64,000 nucleotides of DNA from Deltaproteobacteria bacterium (GCA_019310485.1 JAFDEF010000007.1:4434-68433); one strand, 5' to 3'; shown: positions 3,258-61,930, counted from the first letter of the stretch. The notes: generated from the letters alone by a model not told the origin. Made by a program: numbers and translations.

Positions 3258-4064
3258 CTATGGTAGGATGGCTATGACCCTCACCGGGAAGCCTGTCGCT
3301 TTTTCTGCCTTCGGGACCCCCACAAAGACCAGGAAGTCCCTGGGAGGCAATTGGTCCAGGTTGTTGAGCATCTCGATTTGCCACAAATTCTTTCCCAGAA
3401 CGTATGACTCCAGGGGCCATCCCTTGTCAACACCACAGGTTATTCCACTGTCAGTGTCGGGGGTTTCATGACCGATTGCCCTTATCTTCCTCTTTTCAAC
3501 GAGGTACTGAAGGGCCTCCTTGCCCCAGCCGGGATAGTGCTTCTGCCCCTTCTTGTCTTTTGCAAAAAAAGCATTCGGGTCAGTCCATCGGTAGCTCCAG
3601 TCGGTTCTCAGCATTACCATGGAGCCTTCGGGAATCGGACCATATTTTTCCTCCCATTTTTTGACGTCTGATAGCTTAAGCTGGTAGTCAAAATTATTGA
3701 TGGCTTGTCTGGAGATGTCTATGACACATCCCGGAAGTACAAATTCATAAGGCGGAATTGCATCCACCAGTCTCATCCCCTTGTGAAAATGACCTGCTGC
3801 ATCCAGATGGGTTCCATATTGACCGGCGTGTGTGAAGATCTGGACAGCTCCACCGTATATTGACTTCCTTTTGGGCTTGGGAAGGCCTTCCGGAATAGGG
3901 ATGGAAGGGGAAAACGCGTGGGTCAAATCCACAAACTTATCTTTCGGGATCGAACTGATAGGCTTCCCCATTACAGTAGGGCCTTTTACCATGCTCATCC
4001 CACAACCGGAAAGGGCCAGGCACACTGCACCGATCAGGACTGAGTACATAATAGTGGTTTTCAT
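3258..4064 (-). CDS. Cyclase-family protein (kynurenine-formamidase-like), predicted lipoprotein
   Basis: Lipobox LALSGC near the N-terminus. Contains the motif HAGQYGTHLDAAGHFH, which resembles the HxGTHxDxPxH metal site of the putative-cyclase family. Confidence 0.75.
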   Translation of the reverse strand: MKTTIMYSVLIGAVCLALSGCGMSMVKGPTVMGKPISSIPKDKFVDLTHAFSPSIPIPEGLPKPKRKSIYGGAVQIFTHAGQYGTHLDAAGHFHKGMRLVDAIPPYEFVLPGCVIDISRQAINNFDYQLKLSDVKKWEEKYGPIPEGSMVMLRTDWSYRWTDPNAFFAKDKKGQKHYPGWGKEALQYLVEKRKIRAIGHETPDTDSGITCGVDKGWPLESYVLGKNLWQIEMLNNLDQLPPRDFLVFVGVPKAEKATGFPVRVIAILP

Positions 4065-4692: not shown

Positions 4693-5406
4693 CTAGCCTG
4701 TGGCGAGGTACGCTTTTTTCATCATTTCGTTATTAAGCAAGTTTTCTGCCTTGTCGTGCAAAACGATTTTTCCCAGTTGCAAAACGTAGCCGCGGTCTGC
4801 TATTGATAAAGCCATATTTGCGTTTTGCTCGACCACAAATATCGTGACACCTTCCCTATTTACCCTCTGAATGATTTCAAAGGAATTTTCAACCAGCACG
4901 GGCGCAAGCCCCATGGAGGGCTCATCCATCAGCAAAAGCTTGGGCCGCGACATGAGGGCTCGGCCCATAGCCAACATTTGCTGTTCTCCTCCACTAAGGG
5001 TCGCCCCGTATTGTTTGAGCCTTTCTTTGATTCTAGGAAAGAGGTTAAATACCCGCTCCATATCCTGGGATATACCCCTAGGGTCATTTCTGAGGTAAGC
5101 GCCCAGCTCCAGGTTTTCAAGAACAGTGAGCCTGGGAAAGATTCTTCTATTTTCTGGCACTATCGACACACCCCTTTGCACAATCTTCCCGGTGGGGAGG
5201 CCGCTTATTTTATCTCCCATAAACTCCACTCTTCCCCGGGCCGGCTTCACGACACCTAGGATGGTTTTAAGGGTAGTTGATTTGCCGGAAGCATTCCCGC
5301 CCAACAGGCAAACCAGTTCTTTTTCTTCAATATGAACCTGGATATCTTCAAGAGCCTGGATTTTCCCGTAAAAAACGTCGACATCTATGAGTTCTAGGAT
5401 CCTCAC
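4693..5406 (-). CDS. livF: Branched-chain amino-acid ABC transporter ATP-binding protein (LivF type)
   Basis: Walker A (GGNASGKST), ABC signature (LSGGEQQ) and Walker B (LLLMDEP). Confidence 0.9.
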   Translation of the reverse strand: MRILELIDVDVFYGKIQALEDIQVHIEEKELVCLLGGNASGKSTTLKTILGVVKPARGRVEFMGDKISGLPTGKIVQRGVSIVPENRRIFPRLTVLENLELGAYLRNDPRGISQDMERVFNLFPRIKERLKQYGATLSGGEQQMLAMGRALMSRPKLLLMDEPSMGLAPVLVENSFEIIQRVNREGVTIFVVEQNANMALSIADRGYVLQLGKIVLHDKAENLLNNEMMKKAYLATG

Positions 5407-8352: not shown

Positions 8353-9513
8353 CTACATACCCTTAGCCACCTTGACAAGTTTGAAATCTCCTCCTACGAC
8401 TTTGAAAATATAGGTGGCGCCACCAAGGAGGTCGCCCTTTTTATCAAAAGTTATGGGGAACCCAAGGATGCCCCTGTAGTTCTTGGTTTGAGCCATGTAT
8501 TTCATGACTTCCTTGCGGGTTATGTCGCCGTCTGCAGCAGCTTTTTCCATGGCATTAAGAAGGATGTTCGTGGCATCATAGGCAGGGGGGCCGAATCCGC
8601 TCAGGCTTCCATACTTGCTCTCGTAAACCTTTACGTAGTGAGCAGCCTCGGGGATCTTGTAGATATCGGGGGCAAAGTGATTCAGGTAAGCCCCTTCGGC
8701 AGCGCCTTCGGAAGCCTGTATAAAGTCCTTTTTGTCCTTGGCACCTTCCGAGCCAAAATAGATGGCCTTGATTCCCAGTTCCCTCATCTGCCGAACCATG
8801 ACGGCATGATCAGGTGCTGTCTTGGCTCCCACAACAAGCACATCGGGGTTCTTGGCCTTTACACGGGTCAGGACAGAAGAGTAGTCTTTTGCGCTGGCAA
8901 CGATCGTATCCCTCCAAATCTTTTTGACACCCAGCTTTTTCAAGGTTGCAACCACCTGGTCGGCATAGCCCTGCGAGTAAGTATCCTTGGTATTCAGCAC
9001 GTATACGCTCTTGGCTTTCAGATCCTCGGCAATGAAATGTCCTACAGCAGGCCCGTGGGCATCATCCCTCGCATTGACCCTGAAGAAGTGATGGTATCCC
9101 TTCTCGGTCAGGTCAGGTCTTGATGCAGCCGTTGTGATACAGGTAAGGTTGCATTGAGCATACATCCTGAGCGTTGCCTCAGCGACATTACTCATGGGGG
9201 GGCCAATCACACCGTACATGGTTTTGTCAGCGCAAAATTTCTCAGCCACATTTACACCCTGCGCTGCATCACCTGCATCGTCGCCCATAACCAGTTTCAC
9301 CTTTACTCCCTTTATGCCGCCGGCAGCATTTTTCTCATCAACCGCAATCTTTATAGAATTAAAGATTTCCATGCCGGGCGCTGCAGCAGGGCCGGTAAAG
9401 GGGCCGGCAGCGCCTATGCTTAAACCTTTTGAAACATCAGCTGCGTAACCATTGATTGTTGAAAAAGCAATAATTAAGCAAACACTTAGACCCAACAAAA
9501 GAACCTTTTTCAT
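8353..9513 (-). CDS. livK: Periplasmic amino-acid-binding protein (LivK/LivJ family)
   Basis: 386 aa with a signal peptide and a type-I periplasmic binding-protein sequence. First gene of the liv operon, with AGGAGG upstream. Confidence 0.9.
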   Translation of the reverse strand: MKKVLLLGLSVCLIIAFSTINGYAADVSKGLSIGAAGPFTGPAAAPGMEIFNSIKIAVDEKNAAGGIKGVKVKLVMGDDAGDAAQGVNVAEKFCADKTMYGVIGPPMSNVAEATLRMYAQCNLTCITTAASRPDLTEKGYHHFFRVNARDDAHGPAVGHFIAEDLKAKSVYVLNTKDTYSQGYADQVVATLKKLGVKKIWRDTIVASAKDYSSVLTRVKAKNPDVLVVGAKTAPDHAVMVRQMRELGIKAIYFGSEGAKDKKDFIQASEGAAEGAYLNHFAPDIYKIPEAAHYVKVYESKYGSLSGFGPPAYDATNILLNAMEKAAADGDITRKEVMKYMAQTKNYRGILGFPITFDKKGDLLGGATYIFKVVGGDFKLVKVAKGM

Positions 9514-10055
9514 TTTGACGCCTCCTTTGGTTAAGAAATGAAAGGGTTAAAGCAAACTATATCCCACCTCCTTTCTGGTACGGATCTAGAAGTTCTCCAT
9601 TATTAATGGTCATTTTAAACCCAAAATCAATCTTAACTATGCAATTTTGCAGATCAAAACTCCAGTCCCCACAAATTTCATGGGAGGAAAAAAATGTCAA
9701 GAAATTTTTCCCTCATCCATGTCAATTATTTTATAGTTTGCTAGAATGCCTCGGATTGGTTCCTCCTTTGATAGCACTTATAATGAAAGTGTCAATTGCC
9801 CGGGGAGACTCAAGAGATTTCCATTCCTTGTCAGGGCGGTGGATTTGTGCTCTTTTCACGTGTTCTTGAATTTTCCAGTTTACTATGTTAGGTGTCGACC
9901 GGTTATAGAAGCAGAACATATGCTATGCTGGAAAAGTTATTTCAGTGTTTGGTGCTTCCCATATTTTGAGCAATAAGCGCGAAAGAGGAGTTAGGAGATA
10001 TATTTGTGGCGAACTCATTGAAAGTTGCTGTGAGTAAAAATAGAAAGAGGCGGGT

Positions 10056-11057
10056 GTGAACGGAGCTCAGGAATCTGGATTTAGACTAGCCACTTTCAAA
10101 TCGGCTGGCAAGCCTCAGGTGGGCATGGTTGAAAAAGAGAGGATTATCGAAATAAACCATGCTTTCTCTTTTCTGAGCGACGAGGAAAAGAAAAATCTCG
10201 AGCCAGCCATGCCTATTGTGTCAATGGAAGGGCTTCTTGAAAACTGGGAAAAGGTTTTTCCTTTTCTTTGCAAAGCCGCTAATCTTCTCACCCGCACGCC
10301 TCAGAAAAGAGCGATCTGGCGCAATGTAGGAGAAGTCATTCTGCTGGCTCCTGTCACTACTCCGGGGAAAATGATCAACACGGGCCTCAACTTCCATGAT
10401 CATGCACGTGAAATGGACATTGATGTTCCCTCTAGCGGGTTTCAGCCCAACTTTTTCTTTAAGGGGGATCGGAATTGCATTATAGGCAGCGGGCAAAAAA
10501 TTGAGCTTTCCTCGAATTTCGTGGACTGGGAGGCTGAACTTGCCCTGGTAATAGGCAAGAAAGGGAAGGACATTAAGCCCGAAGATGCTCCGGACTATAT
10601 AGCTGGATATACCTGTCACAATGATATCACGGATCGAAGCTTGATGATCAGGAAAGACGGGAGCCTGGATTTTTTCAGGGGTAAATCCCGTGACACATTT
10701 GGTCCCCTTGGGCCGTTCCTTGTGCCAAAAGAGTTCTTTCCCGGTCCTGACGACCTTAGAATACGATGCTTTGTGAATGGGGAGGTCATGCAGGATTTCA
10801 GCACAGCTCAGATGATCTGGGGTCCGGAGAAGTGCATAGCGTATATTTCTTCCTGTGTCACGCTTATGCCGGGGGATATAATTGCGCTGGGGACCGGGGC
10901 GGGGACAGGGTGGGCCAAAGGCCTGCCGGACGGCGAAAAAAATCTTCATAGGATCCTTGAACTCATGGAACAAGGCGGCGGGAGATTCTTGCGGCCAGGG
11001 GATTGCGTAGTCGTTGAGATAGAGGGTATCGGAAGATTAGAAAACGAGGTGAAATAG
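10056..11057 (+). CDS. Fumarylacetoacetate hydrolase (FAH) family protein
   Basis: 333 aa with FAH-family C-terminal features (WEAELALVIGK, GDIIALGTGAGTG). GTG start. Confidence 0.85.
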   Translation: MNGAQESGFRLATFKSAGKPQVGMVEKERIIEINHAFSFLSDEEKKNLEPAMPIVSMEGLLENWEKVFPFLCKAANLLTRTPQKRAIWRNVGEVILLAPVTTPGKMINTGLNFHDHAREMDIDVPSSGFQPNFFFKGDRNCIIGSGQKIELSSNFVDWEAELALVIGKKGKDIKPEDAPDYIAGYTCHNDITDRSLMIRKDGSLDFFRGKSRDTFGPLGPFLVPKEFFPGPDDLRIRCFVNGEVMQDFSTAQMIWGPEKCIAYISSCVTLMPGDIIALGTGAGTGWAKGLPDGEKNLHRILELMEQGGGRFLRPGDCVVVEIEGIGRLENEVK

Positions 11058-12875: not shown

Positions 12876-14324
12876 ATGGCAGAGAAAGAATTTTTGGATT
12901 TTTGCTCCTTCCTCTCCGGGGTGAGCCTGGCATCTGTGCCACAAAGTGTCGTAGATCACGCCAAGCTGGTGCTGCTGGACACGCTTGGTGTCGTTATTGC
13001 TGGTTCGCAAAACGCTGAAGTAGACAAAATTGCAAAGCATCTTTGCCTAATTGGCAACCGGGACAGAAGTGCCACATGGCCTGGGAGGCAAGAGCGTTTC
13101 AATCCTTTGGACGCGGCTCTGGTTAGCGGTATTTCGGGTTCAAGCCTTGAATATGAGGAAGGTAACTCCAGGGCCATGGGCCATCCTGCGATTCAGCTCA
13201 TCCCGGGGCTTATGGCTGCTTGCGAATCGGAAAACCTGACAGGGGAAAGGGTGCTGAGGGGTCTTATTGCGGGCTACGAGGCGGGCAGCAGGGTGAGCCG
13301 TGCTTCCTCAATCAGAAAGGGCCTTCATCCGACCGGAACATGGGGTGTAGTGGGATGTGCACTCGCTGTGGCGTGTGCATCTGGAAAAAAGCCCCAAGAT
13401 CTGGTTCAGATTTTAAACATCGCTTCGTCCTTTGCTCTTTCTCCTTATGTGAAAAACTCTTTTGTGGGGAAAAACGTAGCAGCAACGTTTGCAGGAGTTA
13501 CAAACTACCTGGGGTTGCTTGCAAATCTTTTTTTTGACAGTGGCATCCGGGCTGACGAGAGCAGCTTCAAAATGACCTTTTCCAGGTTTGTCTCAGATGA
13601 TTTCGAGCCGGATCTTCTCTATGATAATCTTGGAAAAGAATACGCAATAGCCGAAAATTACTTCAAGCCTTACCCAACATGCCGGTTTACCCATCCTTCA
13701 CTTGACGCCCTGAAAGCTATCTTGGAGAGGGAGCAGGTCAATCCCGAAGATGTTGCCCGCGTTAAGGTCTGGAGCTTCAGGGCAGCAGTTCATACTTCTT
13801 CCAGCCCGCCGTCAAATGCCGAGGCCATGCGTTTCTCAACCCCTTATCTTGTTGCCGTGATGCTGGTTTATGGAAATATCAACCTTGGAATAATGAACTT
13901 CCCCGCCGCAAGCAGCGGGGTATCAATCGGAAACCATCTTAACCGCCCCAAGGGGCGGGGAATCAAACCCTTGTCCGCCTCTGGCGGATTGAAAGACGAA
14001 CTGATCGAGGATCATAAAATAAAGGACCTTGCTGCCAGGGTTGAAATGATTCACTCTCGTGAATACGAAAGAATGCTGCCCAGGCACAATCCTGCCAGGG
14101 TTACCGTTCAGCTCAAGGATGGGCGAGAGTTTACCCATGAAACCCTAAACTGCAGGGGAGATCCTTTAAACCCATTGACAGGAGAAGAAGTATCACAAAA
14201 ATTCCTGTCACTCGCAGGGCCTGTCATAGGAGACAAAAGAGCTGAACAGTTTTTGGAGAAGCTCAAGAATCTTGAGTCAGAGAAGCACATTCAAGAATTA
14301 ACGGCACTGCTGAGGCCTGCTTAG
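12876..14324 (+). CDS. MmgE/PrpD family protein carrying a 32-codon repeat-derived insertion
   Basis: 482 aa with PrpD-like sequence throughout (VLLDTLGVVIAGS, HPTGTWGVVG, KPYPTCRFTHP). Residues NFPAASSGVSIGNHLNRPKGRGIKPLSASGGL are encoded by a family-1 repeat. Confidence 0.85.
   Translation: MAEKEFLDFCSFLSGVSLASVPQSVVDHAKLVLLDTLGVVIAGSQNAEVDKIAKHLCLIGNRDRSATWPGRQERFNPLDAALVSGISGSSLEYEEGNSRAMGHPAIQLIPGLMAACESENLTGERVLRGLIAGYEAGSRVSRASSIRKGLHPTGTWGVVGCALAVACASGKKPQDLVQILNIASSFALSPYVKNSFVGKNVAATFAGVTNYLGLLANLFFDSGIRADESSFKMTFSRFVSDDFEPDLLYDNLGKEYAIAENYFKPYPTCRFTHPSLDALKAILEREQVNPEDVARVKVWSFRAAVHTSSSPPSNAEAMRFSTPYLVAVMLVYGNINLGIMNFPAASSGVSIGNHLNRPKGRGIKPLSASGGLKDELIEDHKIKDLAARVEMIHSREYERMLPRHNPARVTVQLKDGREFTHETLNCRGDPLNPLTGEEVSQKFLSLAGPVIGDKRAEQFLEKLKNLESEKHIQELTALLRPA
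13892..13992 (-). repeat. Family-1 structured repeat, subfamily 1b short form, inside the MmgE/PrpD CDS
   Basis: Near-identical to the copy at 59021-59121 in reverse orientation. Flanked by AATGA and ATTGA. Removing 96 nt leaves an intact frame (..GIM-K-DELIE..). Confidence 0.9.
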
Positions 14325-30417: not shown

Positions 30418-30530
30418 GTGGAGCCCCACGGGCAAGCCCGTGGCACCACTTAGTCTCGCCGAATTGCTTCGCAATCGGCGGGACTTAGTGGTACGACATC
30501 CCGCCCGCCCTTAACCGCATTCATCCACGG
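30418..30530 (+). repeat. Family-3 structured repeat, in the ilvB-ilvN spacer
   Basis: A core of about 113 bp matches the reverse complement of 54913-55026, with 2-3 differences by hand alignment. It contains the hairpin CCACGGGCAAGCCCGTGG and a roughly 45-nt imperfect hairpin (CCACTTAGTC...GACTTAGTGG). Confidence 0.85.
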
Positions 30531-30551
30531 TAAAAGCAAGGAGAGGAAATC

Positions 30552-31090: not shown

Positions 31091-31199
31091 GTAAACCCTG
31101 TGGAATTTCGCACGGGGCATTGAACCCCGTGCGAAAAAGCGGAAAAAAACTTTATTTACCATCCCCGTGCTCCCGCACGGGGCGTTCCTACGGGGTAAA
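31091..31199 (+). repeat. Family-2 structured repeat, in the ilvN-ilvC spacer
   Basis: 109 bp, starting GTAAACCC and ending GGGGTAAA. Hairpins TCGCACGGGG/CCCCGTGCGA and CCCCGTGC/GCACGGGG. Nearly identical to 39048-39156, 46784-46892 and 61823-61930. Confidence 0.9.
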
Positions 31200-39047: not shown

Positions 39048-39156
39048 GTAAACCCTGTGGAATTTCGCACGGGGCATTGAACCCCGTGCGAAAAAGCGGG
39101 AAAAAACTTTATTTACCATCCCCGTGCTCCCGCATGGGGCATTCCTACGGGGTAAA
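39048..39156 (+). repeat. Family-2 structured repeat, in the dsrB-dsrD spacer
   Basis: 109 bp in the same orientation as the other three copies. Its 3' end (GGGGTAAA) runs directly into the dsrD SD (AAGGAG). Confidence 0.9.
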
Positions 39157-39433: not shown

Positions 39434-39471
39434 GAGGTCGCTTTCCCAGGGGGAGAGCGACCTCTTTTATT
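39434..39471 (+). terminator. Probable intrinsic terminator after dsrD
   Basis: GAGGTCGC...GCGACCTC stem followed by TTTTATT. Confidence 0.55.
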
Positions 39472-39484
39472 AAAGGGATTTCCA

Positions 39485-40111
39485 GTGAAAGAACCACAGG
39501 ACTCTGAGGAATTCATTGCTGAGCAGAAAAAAATCCTTGCGGAAAACCCTGAATGCGCTAGTTCTCAGTACAATCTGGGTGTTGCGCTGATGGAGCAGGG
39601 TAAATTCGATGAAGCGATTCCCTTTTTCGAGGAAGCAATTGCCAATAGCGGTCGGATGTTTGAGGGATGGGTAAATCTGGGATATATTTATTTCAAGAAA
39701 GGCAAACTTGATAAGGTAGCAGAGGCTAATAGAAACGCTGTTGCAATTGAGCCCAGGTACGCTCGCGGATATGCAAACCTCGGATTTGCCTATCTCCAGA
39801 TGGCAAGGACAGATGAGGCGATAGCAGCGCTTGAAAAAGCCATCGAGCTGAATCCGGATATTGTCCAGGCCTGGAACAACCTAACCAATGCCTATCTTCA
39901 AAAAGGCGACGTAGGAAAAGCCATAGAAACCGGCAAGAAACTTCTGGAACTGGCTCCAACCTTTGCCCTGGGACATAATAACCTTGGATATGCATATTAT
40001 GTAAAAGGTGCCTATGAAAAGGCAATCAAGCATGTGGACAGGGCCAGGGAGCTGGGGTTCCAGGTTCCCCGTGAATTCCTGGAAAAACTGGAACCTTACC
40101 GTAAGAAATGA
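39485..40111 (+). CDS. Tetratricopeptide-repeat protein
   Basis: 208 aa with repeated TPR-like units (A..Y.NLG.AY...G..DEAI..FEKAIELNP). Confidence 0.8.
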   Translation: MKEPQDSEEFIAEQKKILAENPECASSQYNLGVALMEQGKFDEAIPFFEEAIANSGRMFEGWVNLGYIYFKKGKLDKVAEANRNAVAIEPRYARGYANLGFAYLQMARTDEAIAALEKAIELNPDIVQAWNNLTNAYLQKGDVGKAIETGKKLLELAPTFALGHNNLGYAYYVKGAYEKAIKHVDRARELGFQVPREFLEKLEPYRKK

Positions 40112-40746
40112 ATCCCACTCAGTTTTTCCGAAGCTATGAATTTCTGGTGGACAGGGCTGATGCTTTCTTCGCGAAAATGGAGAAAGGCTACGGCTCGTGT
40201 ATCAATTGCAAGAGGCACTGCTCTGATTGTTGTCAGGCCGTATTCGGGTTGTTCCTGATCGAGTCGGCCTACATAAAATCTCGTTTCGACCAGCTTGACC
40301 CTGATACAAGGAAACAGGCCATTTTGAGGTGCAATGAGGCTGACAGGGGTCTGAAAAGACTCGAGACAAAGCTGGAGATCAATAATGGCGACCCGGAAGC
40401 CCAGTCCTCAATTATGGCAAAAGAAAGAATCCGTTGTCCCCTCTTGGACGATAACGAGGACTGTATCCTTTACACGAACCGTCCCATAACGTGCCGCGTA
40501 TATGGTGCCCCTACAAGAATCCATGGCAAAGTCAGGGCTTGCAGCAGGTCAGGGTTCAAGGCAGGCGAACGGTATCCGGTATTTGACCTTGACGGCACTT
40601 ACAGGGAACTTTACTTGCTCTCAAGAGAGTTCCTGAGTACTGCGGGAGACGCTGATCCTGAAAAAGCCTCTTTGCTTATCTCTGTTTCAAAAGCAATAAG
40701 AACGCCACTAGAGGAGCTCGTATACGAGATCTTCCGACGAGGTTAA
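40108..40746 (+). CDS. YkgJ-family Cys-cluster protein (CxxCxxCC putative Fe/Zn-binding domain)
   Basis: CINCKRHCSDCC near the N-terminus and a later CPLL...C...C. Its start overlaps the TPR gene stop (ATGA). Confidence 0.7.
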   Translation: MNPTQFFRSYEFLVDRADAFFAKMEKGYGSCINCKRHCSDCCQAVFGLFLIESAYIKSRFDQLDPDTRKQAILRCNEADRGLKRLETKLEINNGDPEAQSSIMAKERIRCPLLDDNEDCILYTNRPITCRVYGAPTRIHGKVRACSRSGFKAGERYPVFDLDGTYRELYLLSREFLSTAGDADPEKASLLISVSKAIRTPLEELVYEIFRRG

Positions 40747-40865
40747 ATGAACTTCCCCGCCGCAAGCAGCGGGGTATCAATCGGAAACCATCTTAACCGC
40801 CCCAAGGGGCGGGGAATCAAAGCCTTGTCCGCCAGAGGCGGATTAATCCGCCTCTGGCGGATTGC
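40746..40865 (-). repeat. Family-1 structured repeat, subfamily 1b long form
   Basis: About 120 bp, inverted relative to 59021-59121, with one extra 19-nt CCGCC...GGCGG module. It begins at the last base of the ykgJ-like stop codon. Confidence 0.9.
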
Positions 40866-45120: not shown

Positions 45121-46326
45121 CTATGGGGGAAGGATAATCCCTGTGGAAGGGGTTGAGAGGAGGTTCTCGTCCTCATCCTTTTTATCCTGCGCCCCCTCGA
45201 GGTAATATTCCAGGCTATGGTTCACCATTTCCATAAGAAAAACATTTTCTCTAAAAACAGATTGTTTTTCCGCCAGGCTGCTTGCAGCCGCTAGCGAAAG
45301 ACGGGCGTTAGTTTCATCTTCGAGCTTGAAAAACATGTAGGCCATTTCTTCAAGGCGGTTTTTCATAACCTTACGCCTCTTGGGCGGGTACAGGTTTGCT
45401 ATAGCCTCCTTCTTCAATTCCTCGATACGATCTAGTTTTTGAGATTCGGAGACAAGGATTGGGCTTTGTTCGGCTTTTATTATCTCCTCCACCAGAGGTT
45501 TTAGTTCTTCAGGATCAAGGATCCAAGTTGCCATCAAATCGTTCTCGAGCAGCTTTCTAGCCTGCGAAACCGTGATCTCCCCACTTGGTGCATTCCCTTC
45601 ACCAATTAATTCATATACAGGAGGGGCATCAAGGAGCTCAGTGCGCTCGAGGAGCCAGGCCCTAAGTTCGAGATATGCCCGCGAGGATTGATCCGATGGA
45701 CTTTCTTTTTTTCTGTATGCATTTTCAAGAACCGTGGCCGCATGGGCAAGGGTTGTCTCGACCATTGGCTCTACTCTCTCAAAGAAGAATTTTTTTACCT
45801 CTTGGGCTTGTTTCCTGCTGAACTTATTTGCTGCGAATTCCATGATTCCATTTTCATCGCTGGCCACTGCGGTGACAACGGTCATCCCTTTTGGAATTTG
45901 AGGTGCCATAATGAACACGCCGCGTGCCCCCGTGCCGTCAATGGGCCCAACGTAAGCCAAGGGTTGAGAGACTTGAACTTTCTTGAGGATAATTCCCTCG
46001 CTTTTTTCAGGCTCAAGGTCAGGAACTGAGATGCCGCTTTGTTTCAGCTTAAAAGCTGCTTTCCTGATTGCCTTTCGAACCTCTTTCTGGTCAAAAAGCT
46101 CCTTTATTGCCAGAAGAATATTACTGGCGCGCGGGTCATTGGCAGGGAGATTATCTATGAGTGCGCAGGCAAGCTTGGGGCTTGAGAGATTCTGCTTCAA
46201 ATCAGAAAGGATGACGTCTGGTGATTTTTCGAGCAAGCCGCCTAGAGTTGCTTCCTCTTCCGGAGACAGTACAACCGAGCTAGGTGCCTTTTTTCTGTCA
46301 GCTTTTTTCTTCTTCCTGGCTTTCAA
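45121..46326 (-). CDS. Hypothetical protein with Lys-rich N-terminus
   Basis: 401-aa ORF (MKARKKKKADRKKAP...). Its composition is consistent with coding sequence, but no motif was recognised. Confidence 0.6.
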   Translation of the reverse strand: MKARKKKKADRKKAPSSVVLSPEEEATLGGLLEKSPDVILSDLKQNLSSPKLACALIDNLPANDPRASNILLAIKELFDQKEVRKAIRKAAFKLKQSGISVPDLEPEKSEGIILKKVQVSQPLAYVGPIDGTGARGVFIMAPQIPKGMTVVTAVASDENGIMEFAANKFSRKQAQEVKKFFFERVEPMVETTLAHAATVLENAYRKKESPSDQSSRAYLELRAWLLERTELLDAPPVYELIGEGNAPSGEITVSQARKLLENDLMATWILDPEELKPLVEEIIKAEQSPILVSESQKLDRIEELKKEAIANLYPPKRRKVMKNRLEEMAYMFFKLEDETNARLSLAAASSLAEKQSVFRENVFLMEMVNHSLEYYLEGAQDKKDEDENLLSTPSTGIILPP

Positions 46327-46783
46327 GGAAAGCTATGCTCCACTCTATCAAGGAATTGGCTCCAGCTCCTTGCATACGCAACCGCATGCTGAAGGAGCCT
46401 TTATTCAAACACTAAAGCAAAATTATTTTACCTGCACAAAAAAATCAACATAAAACGCATGCCCCCATCCACCATTAAGCCATCATGTGCAGCACCTGCA
46501 AGCCCGTTTGGTCGAGCTCAAGAAGATCCCCCAATGCCCCCTGTTGTGCTTCAAACCACGTGGTCTGAAAAGGTCATCTCGCTCCAAAGTCCCAGCTTCT
46601 ATCTCGGTTAGAGAGGCATCGACGACATGGTGTCTCACCCGCCCCACCCTTGAGTGACATTTAGCGCAGCCTCGGTTACAGTCGCCCTCCGTTTAAGGAA
46701 ACAGGAGCTATATGAGCCATTTTAACAGCGAACCCATGCTGGAGCTCCTTGACTTCAGGCACGAGGCCTTTTTATAGTAAAAA

Positions 46784-46892
46784 GTAAACCCTGTGGAATT
46801 TCGCACGGGGCATTGAACCCCGTGCGAAAAAGCGGAAAAAAACTTTATTTACCATCCCCGTGCTCCCGCACGGGGCGTTCCTACGGGGTAAA
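46784..46892 (+). repeat. Family-2 structured repeat, 91 nt upstream of rnc
   Basis: 109 bp. By hand alignment, identical to the 31091-31199 copy. Confidence 0.9.
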
Positions 46893-54790: not shown

Positions 54791-54912
54791 ATCGTGGCTG
54801 ATAACAGGAAAAAATTCGTAGGGCTCGGTTCAAACAAGCTGCTTCTTAGGAGGCGCATCGTAAAAATCCTCGCAGGCCCATTTACCCCGCCCGCAGAAAG
54901 CCACGGCTTTAG

Positions 54913-55026
54913 CCGTGGATGAATGCGCTTAAGGGCGGGCGGGATGTCGTACCACTAAGTCCCCGCCGATTGCGAAGCAATTCGGCGAGACTAAGTGGTG
55001 CCACGGGCTTGCCCGTGGGGCTCCAC
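54913..55026 (-). repeat. Family-3 structured repeat, inverted copy
   Basis: Reverse complement of 30418-30530. Lies between the dehydrogenase remnant and purD. Confidence 0.85.
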
Positions 55027-57692: not shown

Positions 57693-58888
57693 AGGGCAAG
57701 AATGTCGTTGTAGGTGTGACAGGGGGAATTGCCGCTTACAAGGCGGCGGAGCTTGTGCGCCTGCTTGTCAAAGCAGGCGCACAAACAAGGGTTGCCATGA
57801 CTGCTCATGCCACAAAGTTTGTAACCCCTCTCACCTTTGAAGTTCTCTCAGAAAACAGAGTAGTATGGGATATGTGGGACGGGCAAGAAAGTCCCATGTC
57901 TCATATCACCATGAGTCAGGAGGCCGACCTTATCATAATTGCCCCCGCAACAGCGAACTTCATCGGAAAAATTGCACACGGTATTGCGGATGATTTTCTT
58001 TCTACCTCAATTGTTGCCGCTACAGGAAAGATGCTTGTGTGTCCCTCTATGAATAGCCGCATGCTCTCGAACCCTGCAGTGCAGGAGAACATCACTCTGC
58101 TGAGAAAAAGGGGATACACTGTTATGGCTCCACAAGAGGGTGAGCTTGCATGCGGGGAAAGAGGTGTGGGCAGGCTTCCTGAACCGGAACAGATCCTGGA
58201 GCAGGCCAGGATTTTGCTCTCAGAACATGATCTTTCAGGAATGAAAGTACTCGTTACCGCTGGTGCTACGGTAGAACCGATTGACCCTGTGAGGTACATT
58301 ACAAACAGGTCAAGTGGCAAAATGGGTTACGCTTTGGCTAGAGCCGCTGCTCTCAGGGGTGCGGAAGTAATGCTTGTGAGCGGTCCCACCTCCCTTAACC
58401 CACCCCGCAATGTTAAAGTTTTCAGAGTGAAGACAGCCGCAGAGATGAGAGATGCGGTTCTTGGCCACCACGCGGAATGTGATGTTGTTATCAAGGCAGC
58501 CGCTGTCCTTGATTACAAGCCACGGAGACAATCGAAGACCAAGATAAAAAAGCTGGAGGAAATCCAGTCTCTTGAATTGGTACGAAATCCTGATATCCTT
58601 GCAGAGCTCGGGAGACGCAGAAGCGGAAAGAGGTCTCTGTTGGTCGGATTTGCGGCGGAGACCCACGATCTTATGAGCAATGCGAGGGAAAAGCTTCGAA
58701 AGAAAAACCTGGACATGATCATAGCTAATGACGTTTCCAGAGAAGATGCAGGGTTTGAATCGGACACTAATGCAGTTAAAATTATTCACAGGGATGGCCG
58801 CGTGGAAGAGCTTCCACTCATGACAAAGGAAGACCTTGCAGATCGTATTCTGGACAGAGTCAAGAAACTATGGAAAGAAACAGCCTAG
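57689..58888 (+). CDS. coaBC: Bifunctional phosphopantothenoylcysteine decarboxylase / phosphopantothenate-cysteine ligase
   Basis: 399 aa with a flavoprotein N-terminus (VVGVTGGIAAYK, PAMN-like CPSMN) and a CoaB C-terminal domain. Confidence 0.95.
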   Translation: MKGKNVVVGVTGGIAAYKAAELVRLLVKAGAQTRVAMTAHATKFVTPLTFEVLSENRVVWDMWDGQESPMSHITMSQEADLIIIAPATANFIGKIAHGIADDFLSTSIVAATGKMLVCPSMNSRMLSNPAVQENITLLRKRGYTVMAPQEGELACGERGVGRLPEPEQILEQARILLSEHDLSGMKVLVTAGATVEPIDPVRYITNRSSGKMGYALARAAALRGAEVMLVSGPTSLNPPRNVKVFRVKTAAEMRDAVLGHHAECDVVIKAAAVLDYKPRRQSKTKIKKLEEIQSLELVRNPDILAELGRRRSGKRSLLVGFAAETHDLMSNAREKLRKKNLDMIIANDVSREDAGFESDTNAVKIIHRDGRVEELPLMTKEDLADRILDRVKKLWKETA

Positions 58889-59691
58889 AGCCGGTTGAGG
58901 AATTGAGGCAAGTGGTCAGTCACTTGAAAAAACTAATGACCTATGACCGGGACATGGGGCTTGAGCCCCCCATACTGTCTTCTTCAACCCTGGAGTATCT
59001 CCGGAAAGAAGCCTCAAGTTTCAATCCGCCAGAGGCGGACGAGGGTTTGATTCCCCGCCCCTTGGGGCGGTTAAGATGGTTTCCGACTGATACCCCGCTG
59101 CTCGCGGCGGGGAAGTTCAATTCCCTGGAGGATCTTAGAGATTTCATTGGTGAATGCAAGAGATGCAAGCTCTGGCGCGGGAGGACAAATCTGGTGTTTG
59201 GTGAGGGCTCACATAAGGCTCGATTGGTCTTTGTGGGTGAAGGACCCGGAAGGGAAGAAGACATAGCAGGTAGGCCCTTTGTTGGCGAAGCGGGCAAACT
59301 CTTGACCAGAATAATAGAAAACGGAATGGGGCTGAAACGAAATGAAGTTTACATTTGTAATGTTGTAAAATGCCGCCCTCCACGCAACCGGGACCCCGAA
59401 AAAGATGAAATTGAGGCCTGCTTACCCTTTCTGGAGCAGCAGCTTAGAATAATCAGCCCCGAGGTCATCTGCACTCTAGGCAGGGTGTCGGCTCAGGCCT
59501 TGCTCGGGGGGGAGTTCAAGATCACGCGCGAGAGAGGGAAGTGGTTTTCTTTTATGGATATCCCTCTGATGCCCACATACCATCCGGCATATCTTTTGCG
59601 AAACCCATCGGCAAAACGCGATGTATGGGAGGATGCCAAAAAAATTATGAGACACCTGGGGCTGGAGGTCAGGGAGAATGCTCAGGCGTAG
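58870..59691 (+). CDS. Family-4 uracil-DNA glycosylase carrying a 32-codon repeat-derived insertion
   Basis: CKRCKL..R.NLVFGEG, GEGPGREEDIAGRPFVG and HPAYLLR are family-4 UDG motifs. The N-terminal linker contains NPPEADEGLIPRPLGRLRWFPTDTPLLAAGKF, encoded by a family-1 repeat. Confidence 0.85.
   Translation: MERNSLEPVEELRQVVSHLKKLMTYDRDMGLEPPILSSSTLEYLRKEASSFNPPEADEGLIPRPLGRLRWFPTDTPLLAAGKFNSLEDLRDFIGECKRCKLWRGRTNLVFGEGSHKARLVFVGEGPGREEDIAGRPFVGEAGKLLTRIIENGMGLKRNEVYICNVVKCRPPRNRDPEKDEIEACLPFLEQQLRIISPEVICTLGRVSAQALLGGEFKITRERGKWFSFMDIPLMPTYHPAYLLRNPSAKRDVWEDAKKIMRHLGLEVRENAQA
59021..59121 (+). repeat. Family-1 structured repeat, subfamily 1b short form, inside the UDG CDS
   Basis: TCAAT at both ends. 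Deleting 96 nt restores gcc tca agt ttc aat tcc ctg gag (ASSFNSLE) in frame. Confidence 0.9.
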
Positions 59692-61088: not shown

Positions 61089-61826
61089 ATGTTTTGGATA
61101 TTGGCCGTGGTTTTGATTATCTTTTTTCTGGCTTCCGCTATAAGGATCCTGAGAGAGTATGAGCGGGGGGTCATCTTCAGGCTGGGCAGGGTGATCAAGA
61201 CCAAGGGGCCTGGCCTGATAATTCTAATACCTATTGTGGATAAAATGGTGAAAGTAAGCCTTCGCCTTGTGGCCATGGACGTTCCGCCCCAGGATGTAAT
61301 CACCAGGGATAATGTTTCCGTGAAAGTCAATGCTGTAATCTATTTCAGAGTCATGAACCCGACAAAGGCCACGATTGAAGTGGAAAACTACCTTTTTGCC
61401 ACCTCGCAGCTGGCCCAAACCACCCTGAGGAGTGTTTGTGGGCAGGTGGAGCTGGACGAGCTTCTCGGAGAACGAGAAAAGATCAATACCAGGCTCCAAA
61501 CCATTCTAGACGCCCATACCGATCCCTGGGGGATAAAGGTGTCCACCGTCGAGGTTAAACATATTGATCTGCCCCAAGAGATGCAAAGAGCAATGGCAAA
61601 ACAGGCGGAAGCCGAAAGAGAAAGAAGGGCAAAGGTCATAAATGCGGAAGGGGAGTTTCAGGCGGCAGATCGTCTGACCGAGGCGGCAGGCATAATCGCC
61701 AAGCATCCGGAGGCGCTCCAGTTAAGATATCTTCAGACACTGCGGGAAATATCCTCGGAAAGTAATTCCACGACTTTTTTCCCCATACCGATTGAACTTT
61801 TCAAGCCCTTCATAAAGAAGGAGTAA
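61089..61826 (+). CDS. SPFH/band-7 (stomatin-like) protein
   Basis: 245 aa with an N-terminal TM helix, [13 protein letters not shown], and a coiled [12 protein letters not shown] region. Confidence 0.9.
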
Positions 61827-61930
61827 ACCCTGTCGAATTTCGCACGGGGCATTGAACCCCGTGCGAAAAAGCGGAAAAAGCTTTATTGACCATCCCCGTG
61901 CTCCCGCACGGGGCATTCCTACGGGGTAAA
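61823..61930 (+). repeat. Family-2 structured repeat that overlaps the SPFH stop codon
   Basis: 108 bp, the most divergent of the four copies. Its 5' GTAAA includes the TAA stop (61824-61826). Confidence 0.9.

Follow-up and report, generated by a model that had tools for sequence, protein, structure and literature searches.

A four-copy repeat between genes of the window

The DNA analyzed here, a stretch of 64,000 nt that we refer to as the window, carries a 109-nt element in the spacer between ilvN and ilvC (copy 1; 31091..31199, plus strand). The element starts 38 nt past the ilvN stop and its 3' end lies 20 nt ahead of the ilvC ATG, with the AGGAGG Shine-Dalgarno sequence of ilvC immediately 3' of it. 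A second copy of 109 nt (copy 2; 39048..39156, plus strand) occupies the dsrB/dsrD spacer, 17 nt past the dsrB stop, where its 3' TAAA touches the GGAG Shine-Dalgarno sequence of dsrD; this site was occupied in 6 of the 6 assemblies compared. A canonical terminator-like hairpin, consisting of a 14-bp stem and then TTTTATT, follows dsrD (39434..39464, plus strand) and thereby places copy 2 within the dsrABD transcription unit.

Copy 3 (46784..46892, plus strand, 109 nt) is identical to copy 1 and sits 90 nt 5' of rnc, the gene for RNase III, in a divergent spacer of 657 nt whose upstream neighbor (45121-46326) is on the minus strand. A promoter-like site identified only as a consensus match, TTGACT-18-TATAGT (46749..46778, plus strand), ends 5 nt 5' of this copy, so that the rnc leader would begin with this copy if the predicted promoter is active. 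Copy 4 (61823..61930, plus strand) has one A fewer, for a length of 108 nt, and separates an SPFH/Band_7 gene from a gene encoding a 130-aa Lys-rich protein; its left GTAAA contains the TAA stop codon of the SPFH gene. Pfam searches with identical proteins agree with the flanking genes named in an earlier, sequence-only reading of this DNA, returning ACT/ALS_ss_C and KARI for ilvN/ilvC, NIR_SIR and DsrD for dsrB/dsrD, Ribonuclease_3 for rnc, and Band_7 for the SPFH gene, followed by the 130-aa protein without a Pfam match.

A MAFFT alignment of the four copies with 20-nt flanks shows them to be 95-100% identical and all on the plus strand, with similarity switching on exactly at GTAAACCC and off at GGGGTAAA. 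A repeat finder recovered the family in the window, and the 25-nt hairpin core gives 4 matches there, all on the plus strand, versus 0.00 expected from shuffles. The four plus-strand copies described in the sequence-only reading are thus confirmed, and no further copies occur within 10 kb beyond either window end. The same reading had placed every copy between co-directional genes, which holds for copies 1, 2 and 4 and fails for copy 3 with its divergent spacer, and had estimated that about half of the window genes are on the plus strand, a figure that the trained ORF caller revised to 37 of 57 (65%).

Predicted fold and anatomy of the element

Structure prediction folds the element into a three-way junction with a minimum free energy of -53.5 kcal/mol (z = -6.1), a value reached by 0 of 200 shuffles. 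The outer stem comprises 12 bp, in which element positions 5-16 pair with positions 94-106, including one G-U pair and interrupted by a single bulged U, and it encloses two hairpins at element positions 17-45 and 73-92. On the plus strand of copy 1, the 5' arm of the outer stem spans 31095..31106 (element positions 5-16) and also forms the left terminal inverted repeat CCCTGTGGAAT. It is followed by hairpin 1 (31107..31135; TTCGCACGGGG / CATTGAA / CCCCGTGCGAA), with an 11-bp stem and a 7-nt loop, by an A/U-rich unpaired linker of 27 nt (31136..31162; AAAGCGGAAAAAAACTTTATTTACCAT), and by hairpin 2 (31163..31182; CCCCGTGC / TCCC / GCACGGGG), with an 8-bp stem. The 3' arm of the outer stem, TTCCTACGGGG, and the terminal TAAA complete the element (31184..31199). 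Hairpin 2 reuses the arms of hairpin 1 with their order exchanged, and the length of the A-run in the linker differs among copies. Both ends carry imperfect terminal inverted repeats of 11 nt, reading CCCYGTRGGAA on the left and TTCCTACGGGG on the right. The predicted fold agrees with the closing stem, two hairpins and A-rich linker that had been proposed from the sequence.

Consensus scans of the four copies detected neither promoter-like nor terminator-like sites inside any of them on either strand, as expected from the earlier statement that the hairpins are not terminators. An intrinsic terminator was consequently rejected as an identity for the element, the scans calling no hairpin followed by a U-run in any copy on either strand. 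A known RNA family was also discarded, with 0 matches to Rfam 15 in the window at gathering score and only noise at a lax threshold (best matches <=22 bits versus cut-offs of 40-100), as was an integron attC site, since on sequence reading the termini are unlike RYYYAAC/GTTRRRY and the flanks are core operons.

Further copies and variant forms in metagenome contigs

Scanning metagenome contigs with the hairpin 1 pattern yielded 19 contigs, which contribute 10 additional independent, unlinked full-length sites and bring the total to 14. The contigs with further sites appear to derive from the same organism as the window. Full-length copies are ~94-100% identical to copy 1, and mean column identity in a 15-copy alignment is 96%.

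Five variant sites were found besides the 14 full-length ones. The 62-nt form (L013) consists of GTAAA, a near-perfect 23-bp hairpin and TAAA (-45.4 kcal/mol), with outer stem and hairpin 1 fused into a single 23-bp helix; in the 109-nt form, a second GC hairpin and the A-rich linker interrupt the 3' arm of this helix. A shorter form of 44 nt, present at L011, L025 and L134, corresponds to a deletion between internal GCACGGGGC repeats. At L022 (3535-3680), hairpin 1 of the present family (family 2) is joined to a segment of family 3 in a chimera. A truncated copy comprising element positions 1-88 lies on contig L133 (10123-10210, minus strand; MAG GCA_003646955.1) inside a CxxCH multihaem-cytochrome-like reading frame, and an annotated 79-aa 'protein' (P0001) runs through it. 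The 44-nt form at L134 (7180-7223, minus strand) separates a Pyr_redox_2 gene that is truncated at its N-terminus from an upstream gene that is both fragmented and truncated, a context suggesting that the element marks the endpoint of a deletion or rearrangement.

Several contigs of other assemblies (L109, L111, L112 and L116) end inside or beside the element, as is typical of repeats. Searching for new sites through spurious ORFs, a route skewed toward antisense copies, returned only two proteins, corresponding to one known site and one truncated intragenic copy. For annotators of uncultured sulfate reducers, the relevant lesson is that structured repeats of 100-130 nt in core operons (dsrABD, ilvBNC) break assemblies and yield spurious ORFs.

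The exact DsrB protein of the window occurs on contigs of several JGI and ENA metagenomes and in MAG GCA_029932405.1. Using the exact IlvN, Era-like, SPFH and DsrB proteins as probes, we found no empty alleles within the species, the four window sites being filled in every sample. Pattern scans gave no copies in plasmids, in viral contigs (two patterns) or in the representative genomes of GTDB, and the lack of hairpin 1 matches in the latter indicates that the species is not among them.

The element is an insertion relative to related genomes

Among reference genomes, MAGs of uncultured Desulfatiglandales-like or "Desulfobacteraceae" bacteria come closest, strain NaphS2 among them, with a best DsrB identity of 93%. 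The sequence-only reading had suggested a covariance-model search in related genomes; our model R1, built from 15 copies, and BLAST both found the element missing in 80 related species across 1.2 Mb around dsrB. The ilvN/ilvC spacer of these relatives measures 13-22 nt, with one outlier (L089), and typically reads TAAAGGAG..ATG, and their dsrB/dsrD spacer is mostly ~30-50 nt long (e.g., GTAAAGGAGCAaacagATG). In silico excision leaving one GTAAA restores GTAAAGGAGCA before dsrD, and the simulated empty dsrB/dsrD site aligns uninterrupted across relatives. Matches in relatives to a pattern resembling the terminal inverted repeats occur at chance level, the one in L030 falling inside ilvC. Judged by these sequence comparisons, the element is an insertion, young and restricted to one lineage.

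Two further observations were made in the spacers of related species. In the dsrB/dsrD spacer of the closest relative (a HyVt-17 MAG; L026, ~4975-4990), the stretch TTTTACCCCATAG matches the terminus TTTACCCCGTAGG at 11 of 13 positions, and may be a relic, a footprint or a chance resemblance (rough p ~0.002). The outlier L089 contains an unrelated hairpin-forming insert of ~100 nt (3821-3939) in its ilvN/ilvC spacer; different repeats have independently invaded this junction.

Polarity-locked flanks point to oriented insertion

The layout of the sites is always A-rich/GTAAA[element]TAAA, with no further duplication. An A precedes GTAAA in 16 of 17 sites and positions -6 to -2 are purine-rich and T-poor, and the right flank past the 3' TAAA is unconserved across the 17 sites. 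At 17 of 17 sites, the polarity of the TAAA equals that of the element, so the flanking TAAA would be either part of the element or the mark of an insertion oriented on an asymmetric target. The left GTAAA contains or abuts the upstream stop codon at 7 of 19 sites (w4, L008, L009, L018, L022 and the short forms at L011 and L025), in the forms G-TAA, TAG/TAA or TAA/GTAAA. The 3' end lies 2-20 nt ahead of a start codon at 6 of 10 sense full-length sites, several of which have their TAAA immediately 5' of the Shine-Dalgarno sequence. These arrangements of the flanks point to an oriented, site-specific insertion.

The fixed polarity of the TAAA is a poor fit to random-orientation DDE transposition with target duplication, which bears on a possible origin of the element as a DDE-type MITE. 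Such an element would be bounded by the 11-nt terminal inverted repeats CCCYGTRGGAA and would have duplicated a TAAA target, leaving its orientation bias wholly to selection. The imperfect inverted repeats, the TAAA on both sides, and a size, copy identity and set of variant forms typical of MITEs all fit this origin. Target-specific MITEs have precedent, reportedly including bcr1 with TTTAT. Another target-specific MITE is Chunjie (reviewed in PMC10969869). Nevertheless, DDE insertion should ignore target asymmetry, and the left signal (A at -1, purines, G before TAAA) is on the same side of the element in 16-17 of 17 sites; furthermore, the window and contigs L001-L025 yielded no parent insertion sequence bearing these ends, and the sister family 1 inserts without duplication. 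We consequently consider a DDE-type origin unlikely.

No longer element bounded by the same termini was detected in the window and contigs L001-L025, where every terminus match belongs to a short copy. A screen for the HUH...Y motif in ~300 kb apparently from this species found no transposase or RAYT partner and 0 HUH-Y1 motif ORFs, a result that is weak evidence given the incompleteness of the genome.

Orientation of copies relative to neighboring genes

We classified the orientation of 19 sites on contigs with an ORF caller trained on the window, checking its calls against deposited gene calls and Pfam. Seven sites are sense with co-directional neighbors (w1, w2, w4, L018, L025, L009 and the L022 variant), and five are sense and 5' of a gene with a divergent or unknown neighbor (w3, L020, L019, L016 and the L013 variant). 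Three sites lie between convergent neighbors, abutting the stop of the same-strand upstream gene (L008 and the short forms at L011 and L025), and four are antisense (L012/L014, L011/L015, L021 and the short form at L134). Among the antisense copies, that of L012/L014 lies between two intact co-directional genes, that of L011/L015 (a site also represented by L134/L135, with its antisense orientation confirmed by deposited gene calls) in a gene-poor gap, that of L021 among pseudogene and IS debris (transposase and amidohydrolase fragments), and the L134 short form at the junction of two truncated genes.

Sense copies hence amount to 12 of 19 under a strict count and to 15 of 19 under a broad one (two-sided p ~0.02). 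An earlier tally had given 15 of 18 by the broad count (p = 0.0075) and, before the L134 short form joined the census, 12 sense versus 3 antisense by the strict count (p = 0.035); full-length copies alone give 10 sense versus 3 antisense (p = 0.09). The orientation census proposed in the sequence-only reading therefore upholds a sense bias but not the rule, drawn from the window, that copies are always sense, the four antisense sites being incompatible with uniform orientation. That reading had itself cautioned that four sense copies out of four are only suggestive, in agreement with the corresponding one-sided p of 0.06.

The same reading had also taken sense orientation to argue against neutral insertion, an argument undercut by the locking of polarity to the asymmetric A-rich-GTAAA left flank in 17 of 17 sites. 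Because this left flank is often a stop codon or the TAAA preceding a Shine-Dalgarno sequence, part of the sense bias would follow from oriented insertion. In the intergenic spacers of relatives, GTAAA occurs 66 times in sense versus 46 in antisense orientation and A[AG]TAAA 56 versus 35 times, and PWM matches number 103 sense versus 66 antisense at a loose threshold and are unbiased at strict ones. Target-motif polarity was rejected as the full cause of the bias, since it predicts ~59-61% sense copies versus the 79% seen; the observed 15 of 19 exceeds the prediction of ~60%, although not decisively. Selection against disruptive copies may supply the remainder, and the finding that antisense copies are mostly in decaying contexts fits such extra filtering. 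An always-sense rule based on four copies can thus arise from polarity-locked insertion at stop or pre-Shine-Dalgarno TAAA sites plus filtering, with no RNA function involved.

The contexts of the antisense copies also bear on the idea that the reversed element is polar, acting as a terminator or as a false translation start, and that selection purges antisense copies from operons for this reason. In the antisense direction, UUUAC and then the complement of the A-rich left flank come after the closing stem (e.g., UUUACUUUUUUG at L011), the antisense strand contains a GGGAG-N7-AUG that opens a frame annotated by gene callers (P0001, P0002), and antisense copies are mostly in decaying or terminal contexts. 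However, no minus-strand terminator is called at any of the four window copies, internal U-runs begin 13 nt past the hairpin, and the antisense copy of L012/L014 persists between two intact co-directional genes, so that we hold this effect to be quite improbable as the source of the bias.

A bias relative to genes could also have its origin in replication instead of transcription, if a single-strand transposase targeted one template strand of the fork and copies appeared sense because genes are co-oriented with replication. There is precedent for this in IS608 and ISDra2, which target the lagging-strand template (PMC6006769), and GC skew is uniformly positive around the four window copies, where most genes are on the plus strand. 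GC skew, however, merely tracks gene strand at other loci and the two are inseparable on contigs; sense copies are found in loci with mostly opposite-strand genes (co-oriented fractions of 0.23 at L020, 0.36 at L019 and 0.42 at L025); and, assuming that the leading strand is the one marked by skew, the strand bearing the target is the wrong one for the IS608 rule. A replication-based bias is hence very unlikely in our assessment.

Evidence bearing on a role at the RNA level

Transcripts of dsrABD, ilvBNC and rnc in all likelihood include the element. With coupled junctions of 13 nt expanded to 167 nt, it may plausibly affect mRNA stability or translational coupling. The sequence-only reading suggested a role for the element at the RNA level, such as processing, stability or decoupling of expression. 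The stable fold is shared by both strands, as the antisense RNA folds equally well (-53.5 kcal/mol, z = -5.7) and the DNA strand does likewise. Across 14 distinct copies, compensatory changes were observed in 0 of 31 pairs, and shuffles equaled the copies on every measure. The substitution rate per site-copy is 0.030 for the outer stem, 0.027 for the stem of hairpin 2 and 0.032 for the linker, and 7 of the 16 stem substitutions break a pair. As read from these alignments, the substitution pattern is that of a recent burst from a master copy and not that of a conserved structure. The element thus shows no covariation, has unprotected stems and is absent in 80 relatives, at odds with a conserved cis-regulatory RNA, and the proposed RNA-level role is not supported. 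What the earlier reading had described as a dispersed, structured, non-terminator repeat of the REP/BIME kind inside transcription units is supported.

These results weigh on the possibility that the repeat has been co-opted as an RNA cassette, in which the sense three-way junction would stop exonucleases that degrade in the 3'-5' direction, or the A/U-rich linker would be cleaved by RNase III or RNase E. By analogy with REP, ERIC and Correia repeats, such a cassette would uncouple the stability and translation of dsrAB from those of dsrD, and of ilvBN from those of ilvC. The sense majority (15 versus 4), the lack of internal terminators in the host units, the short distance (2-20 nt) from 3' end to start codon at 6 of the 10 full-length sense sites, the very stable fold (with a 23-bp helix in the 62-nt form) and the fixation of copies in all sampled strains are consistent with this function, and known repeats do influence mRNA (PMC3049150, PMC6006769). 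Yet the antisense RNA folds equally, covariation is absent and the stems are not protected from substitution, relatives manage with coupled junctions of 13-22 nt without the element, and both antisense and intragenic copies occur. Co-option as a cassette is accordingly a minor possibility; were it true, the element would represent a natural rewiring of expression ratios by a mobile element in the dissimilatory sulfite reductase operon.

A more elaborate version, which we deem highly improbable, would make the repeat a domesticated intercistronic module. Sense copies would then set the dsrAB:dsrD and ilvBN:ilvC expression ratios, either as barriers to exonucleases or as substrates of RNase III or RNase E, and the copy in the rnc leader would let RNase III sense the load of element transcripts and autoregulate against it. 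The autoregulation of rnc through its leader in E. coli offers a parallel for this copy, here built from a mobile repeat. The location of the rnc copy right after a promoter-like site is the sole feature that would justify an experiment. If the rnc leader does begin with copy 3, the gene might regulate itself, given the long double-stranded RNA within the element.

Relationship to known classes of repeats

To place the element among known repeats, we compared it with REP/BIME-REPIN repeats (associated with RAYT), with IS200/IS605 PATEs and with co-transcribed MITEs. Like REP repeats, it is an extragenic, species-specific, multi-copy GC-rich hairpin with modular composite forms, and it is a non-terminator tolerated inside operons. 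The REP design places a 5' tetranucleotide GT[AG]G 0-2 nt from the hairpin foot (PMC6006769), and here a GTAA head on the 5' side is separated by 1 nt from the foot of a long stem that contains a 1-nt bulge. The head differs, however, in being GTAA(A), which fits GT[AG]G at 3 of 4 positions with A at position 4 in every aligned copy. The ends of the element are direct (GTAAA...TAAA), whereas those of REPINs and double-foot REPs are inverted, the hairpin 1 loop has 7 nt, and the full form measures 109 nt versus 21-65 nt for REPs. The 62-nt form resembles a 'long REP', but the 109-nt form is not an inverted doublet, as the arms of hairpin 2 are swapped. No RAYT gene or REPtron was found in the HUH...Y screen of ~300 kb of an incomplete genome, and the apparent density of ~1 copy per 20-50 kb is far lower than that of REPs in E. 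coli, which reach up to 1% of the chromosome.

Like IS200/IS605 PATEs, the element has subterminal hairpins, located 13 nt from the left end and 12-17 nt from the right one, and a conserved site of 4-5 nt immediately precedes its left end; polarity is fixed, and nothing is duplicated save the shared TAAA. Copies always lie 3' of A/GTAAA with a random right flank, as in PATEs, and IS608 has the same arrangement of a short site and subterminal hairpins (PMC3201880). Unlike in PATEs, the two hairpins are not alike (their arms being swapped) and the ends pair as a 12-bp outer stem; moreover, no TnpA or TnpB partner was seen, and a lagging-strand bias is inseparable from gene strand on the contigs.

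Co-transcribed MITEs, such as Chunjie of Geobacter uraniireducens, Correia/NEMIS, ERIC and the pneumococcal BOX/RUP/SPRITE elements, are similarly non-coding, ~100-200 nt long and hairpin-forming, with size variants. Chunjie inserts between operon genes and leaves the operon unbroken (PMC10969869), as the present element does in its intergenic operon insertions. By analogy, co-transcription would be expected and orientation-dependent effects would be possible (PMC3049150). The element differs from these MITEs in lacking sequence or Rfam similarity to them, in its polarity-locked flanks and in showing no variable duplication. It does consist of short, non-coding, near-identical copies (14 full-length sites, the intact copies being intergenic) with terminal inverted repeats, as MITEs do. 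No parent insertion sequence was seen in the window and contigs L001-L025, and the TAAA at both ends is invariant and shares the polarity of the element in 17 of 17 sites, with extra conservation on the left only. The element is thus a new family of a known kind (REP/PATE/MITE-like), recently expanded in one uncultured sulfate reducer.

A model for the origin of the element

Taken together, these data make it likely that an uncultured sulfate reducer of the Desulfatiglandales-like group harbors the element as a REP/PATE/MITE-like mobile repeat that is non-autonomous, young and confined to this lineage, inserts with fixed polarity and is passively co-transcribed. This reading builds on the insertion relative to related genomes, the near-identity of copies at multiple sites, their sharp ends and variant forms, the polarity-locked flanks and the lack of structural constraint; the enzyme, its single-strand mechanism and the co-transcription are inferred. 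The element would insert with fixed polarity beside an A-rich ...A-GTAAA site without other duplication, the mode expected of single-strand HUH mobilization (by a RAYT or an IS200/IS605 TnpA) and not of cut-and-paste DDE transposition. Target sites would often coincide with the TAA stop of a gene or with a TAAA just 5' of a Shine-Dalgarno sequence, and copies would persist only where nothing is broken, so that site choice and the survival filter would jointly produce intercistronic positions and a sense majority. The inserted element would be passively co-transcribed and fold as a stable three-way junction, any effect on mRNA being a by-product of its presence and not the cause. If polarity-locked, duplication-free insertion is correct, a GTAA-headed family joins the REP/HUH-mobilized repeats in the Thermodesulfobacteriota.

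Several observations count against this model. Neither a transposase or RAYT nor a larger element sharing the same ends was found in the regions screened, and no filled/empty polymorphism was seen for family 2, the four window sites being occupied in every sample. The ends form an 11-nt inverted repeat, a feature normally missing from IS200/IS605 elements, and the head is GTAA and not the GT[AG]G of REPs. Target polarity alone leaves a gap between ~60% and 79% sense copies, and the census covers 19 sites and not a whole genome.

Other repeat families in the window

Indirect support for the insertion of family 2 comes from family 1, a multi-hairpin repeat that is mobile without duplication. The window (40747-40860) and L003 contain a family-1 copy that is partial in L002 and absent from L001 (~5904) and L006 (~3331). 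The empty site reads GAGGTTAA/TTGCAGG, and the insertion, directly after the TAA stop of the gene at 40108-40746, generated no duplication longer than 1 nt. This presence/absence pattern is direct evidence of current repeat mobility in the species. Family-1 AATCCGCCAGAGGCGGATT units are also found at 13892, 15095, 43654, 44265, 59023 and 62445. At 59005-59125, a family-1 copy lies in the 5' part of a UDG-family ORF (58870-59691), whose annotated start has probably been extended through the repeat.

Family 3 comprises repeats of ~120 nt at 30418-30537 (plus strand) and 54906-55026 (minus strand), with copies 95-100% identical. The plus-strand copy lies in the ilvB/ilvN spacer, the length of which varies between strains, so the ilvBNC operon holds two different repeats. 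Elsewhere in the window, gene strand and GC skew flip at ~9500-10100, with minus-strand genes before this region and plus-strand genes after it, and contigs of two other assemblies (L127 and L128) break near window position 10.8 kb.
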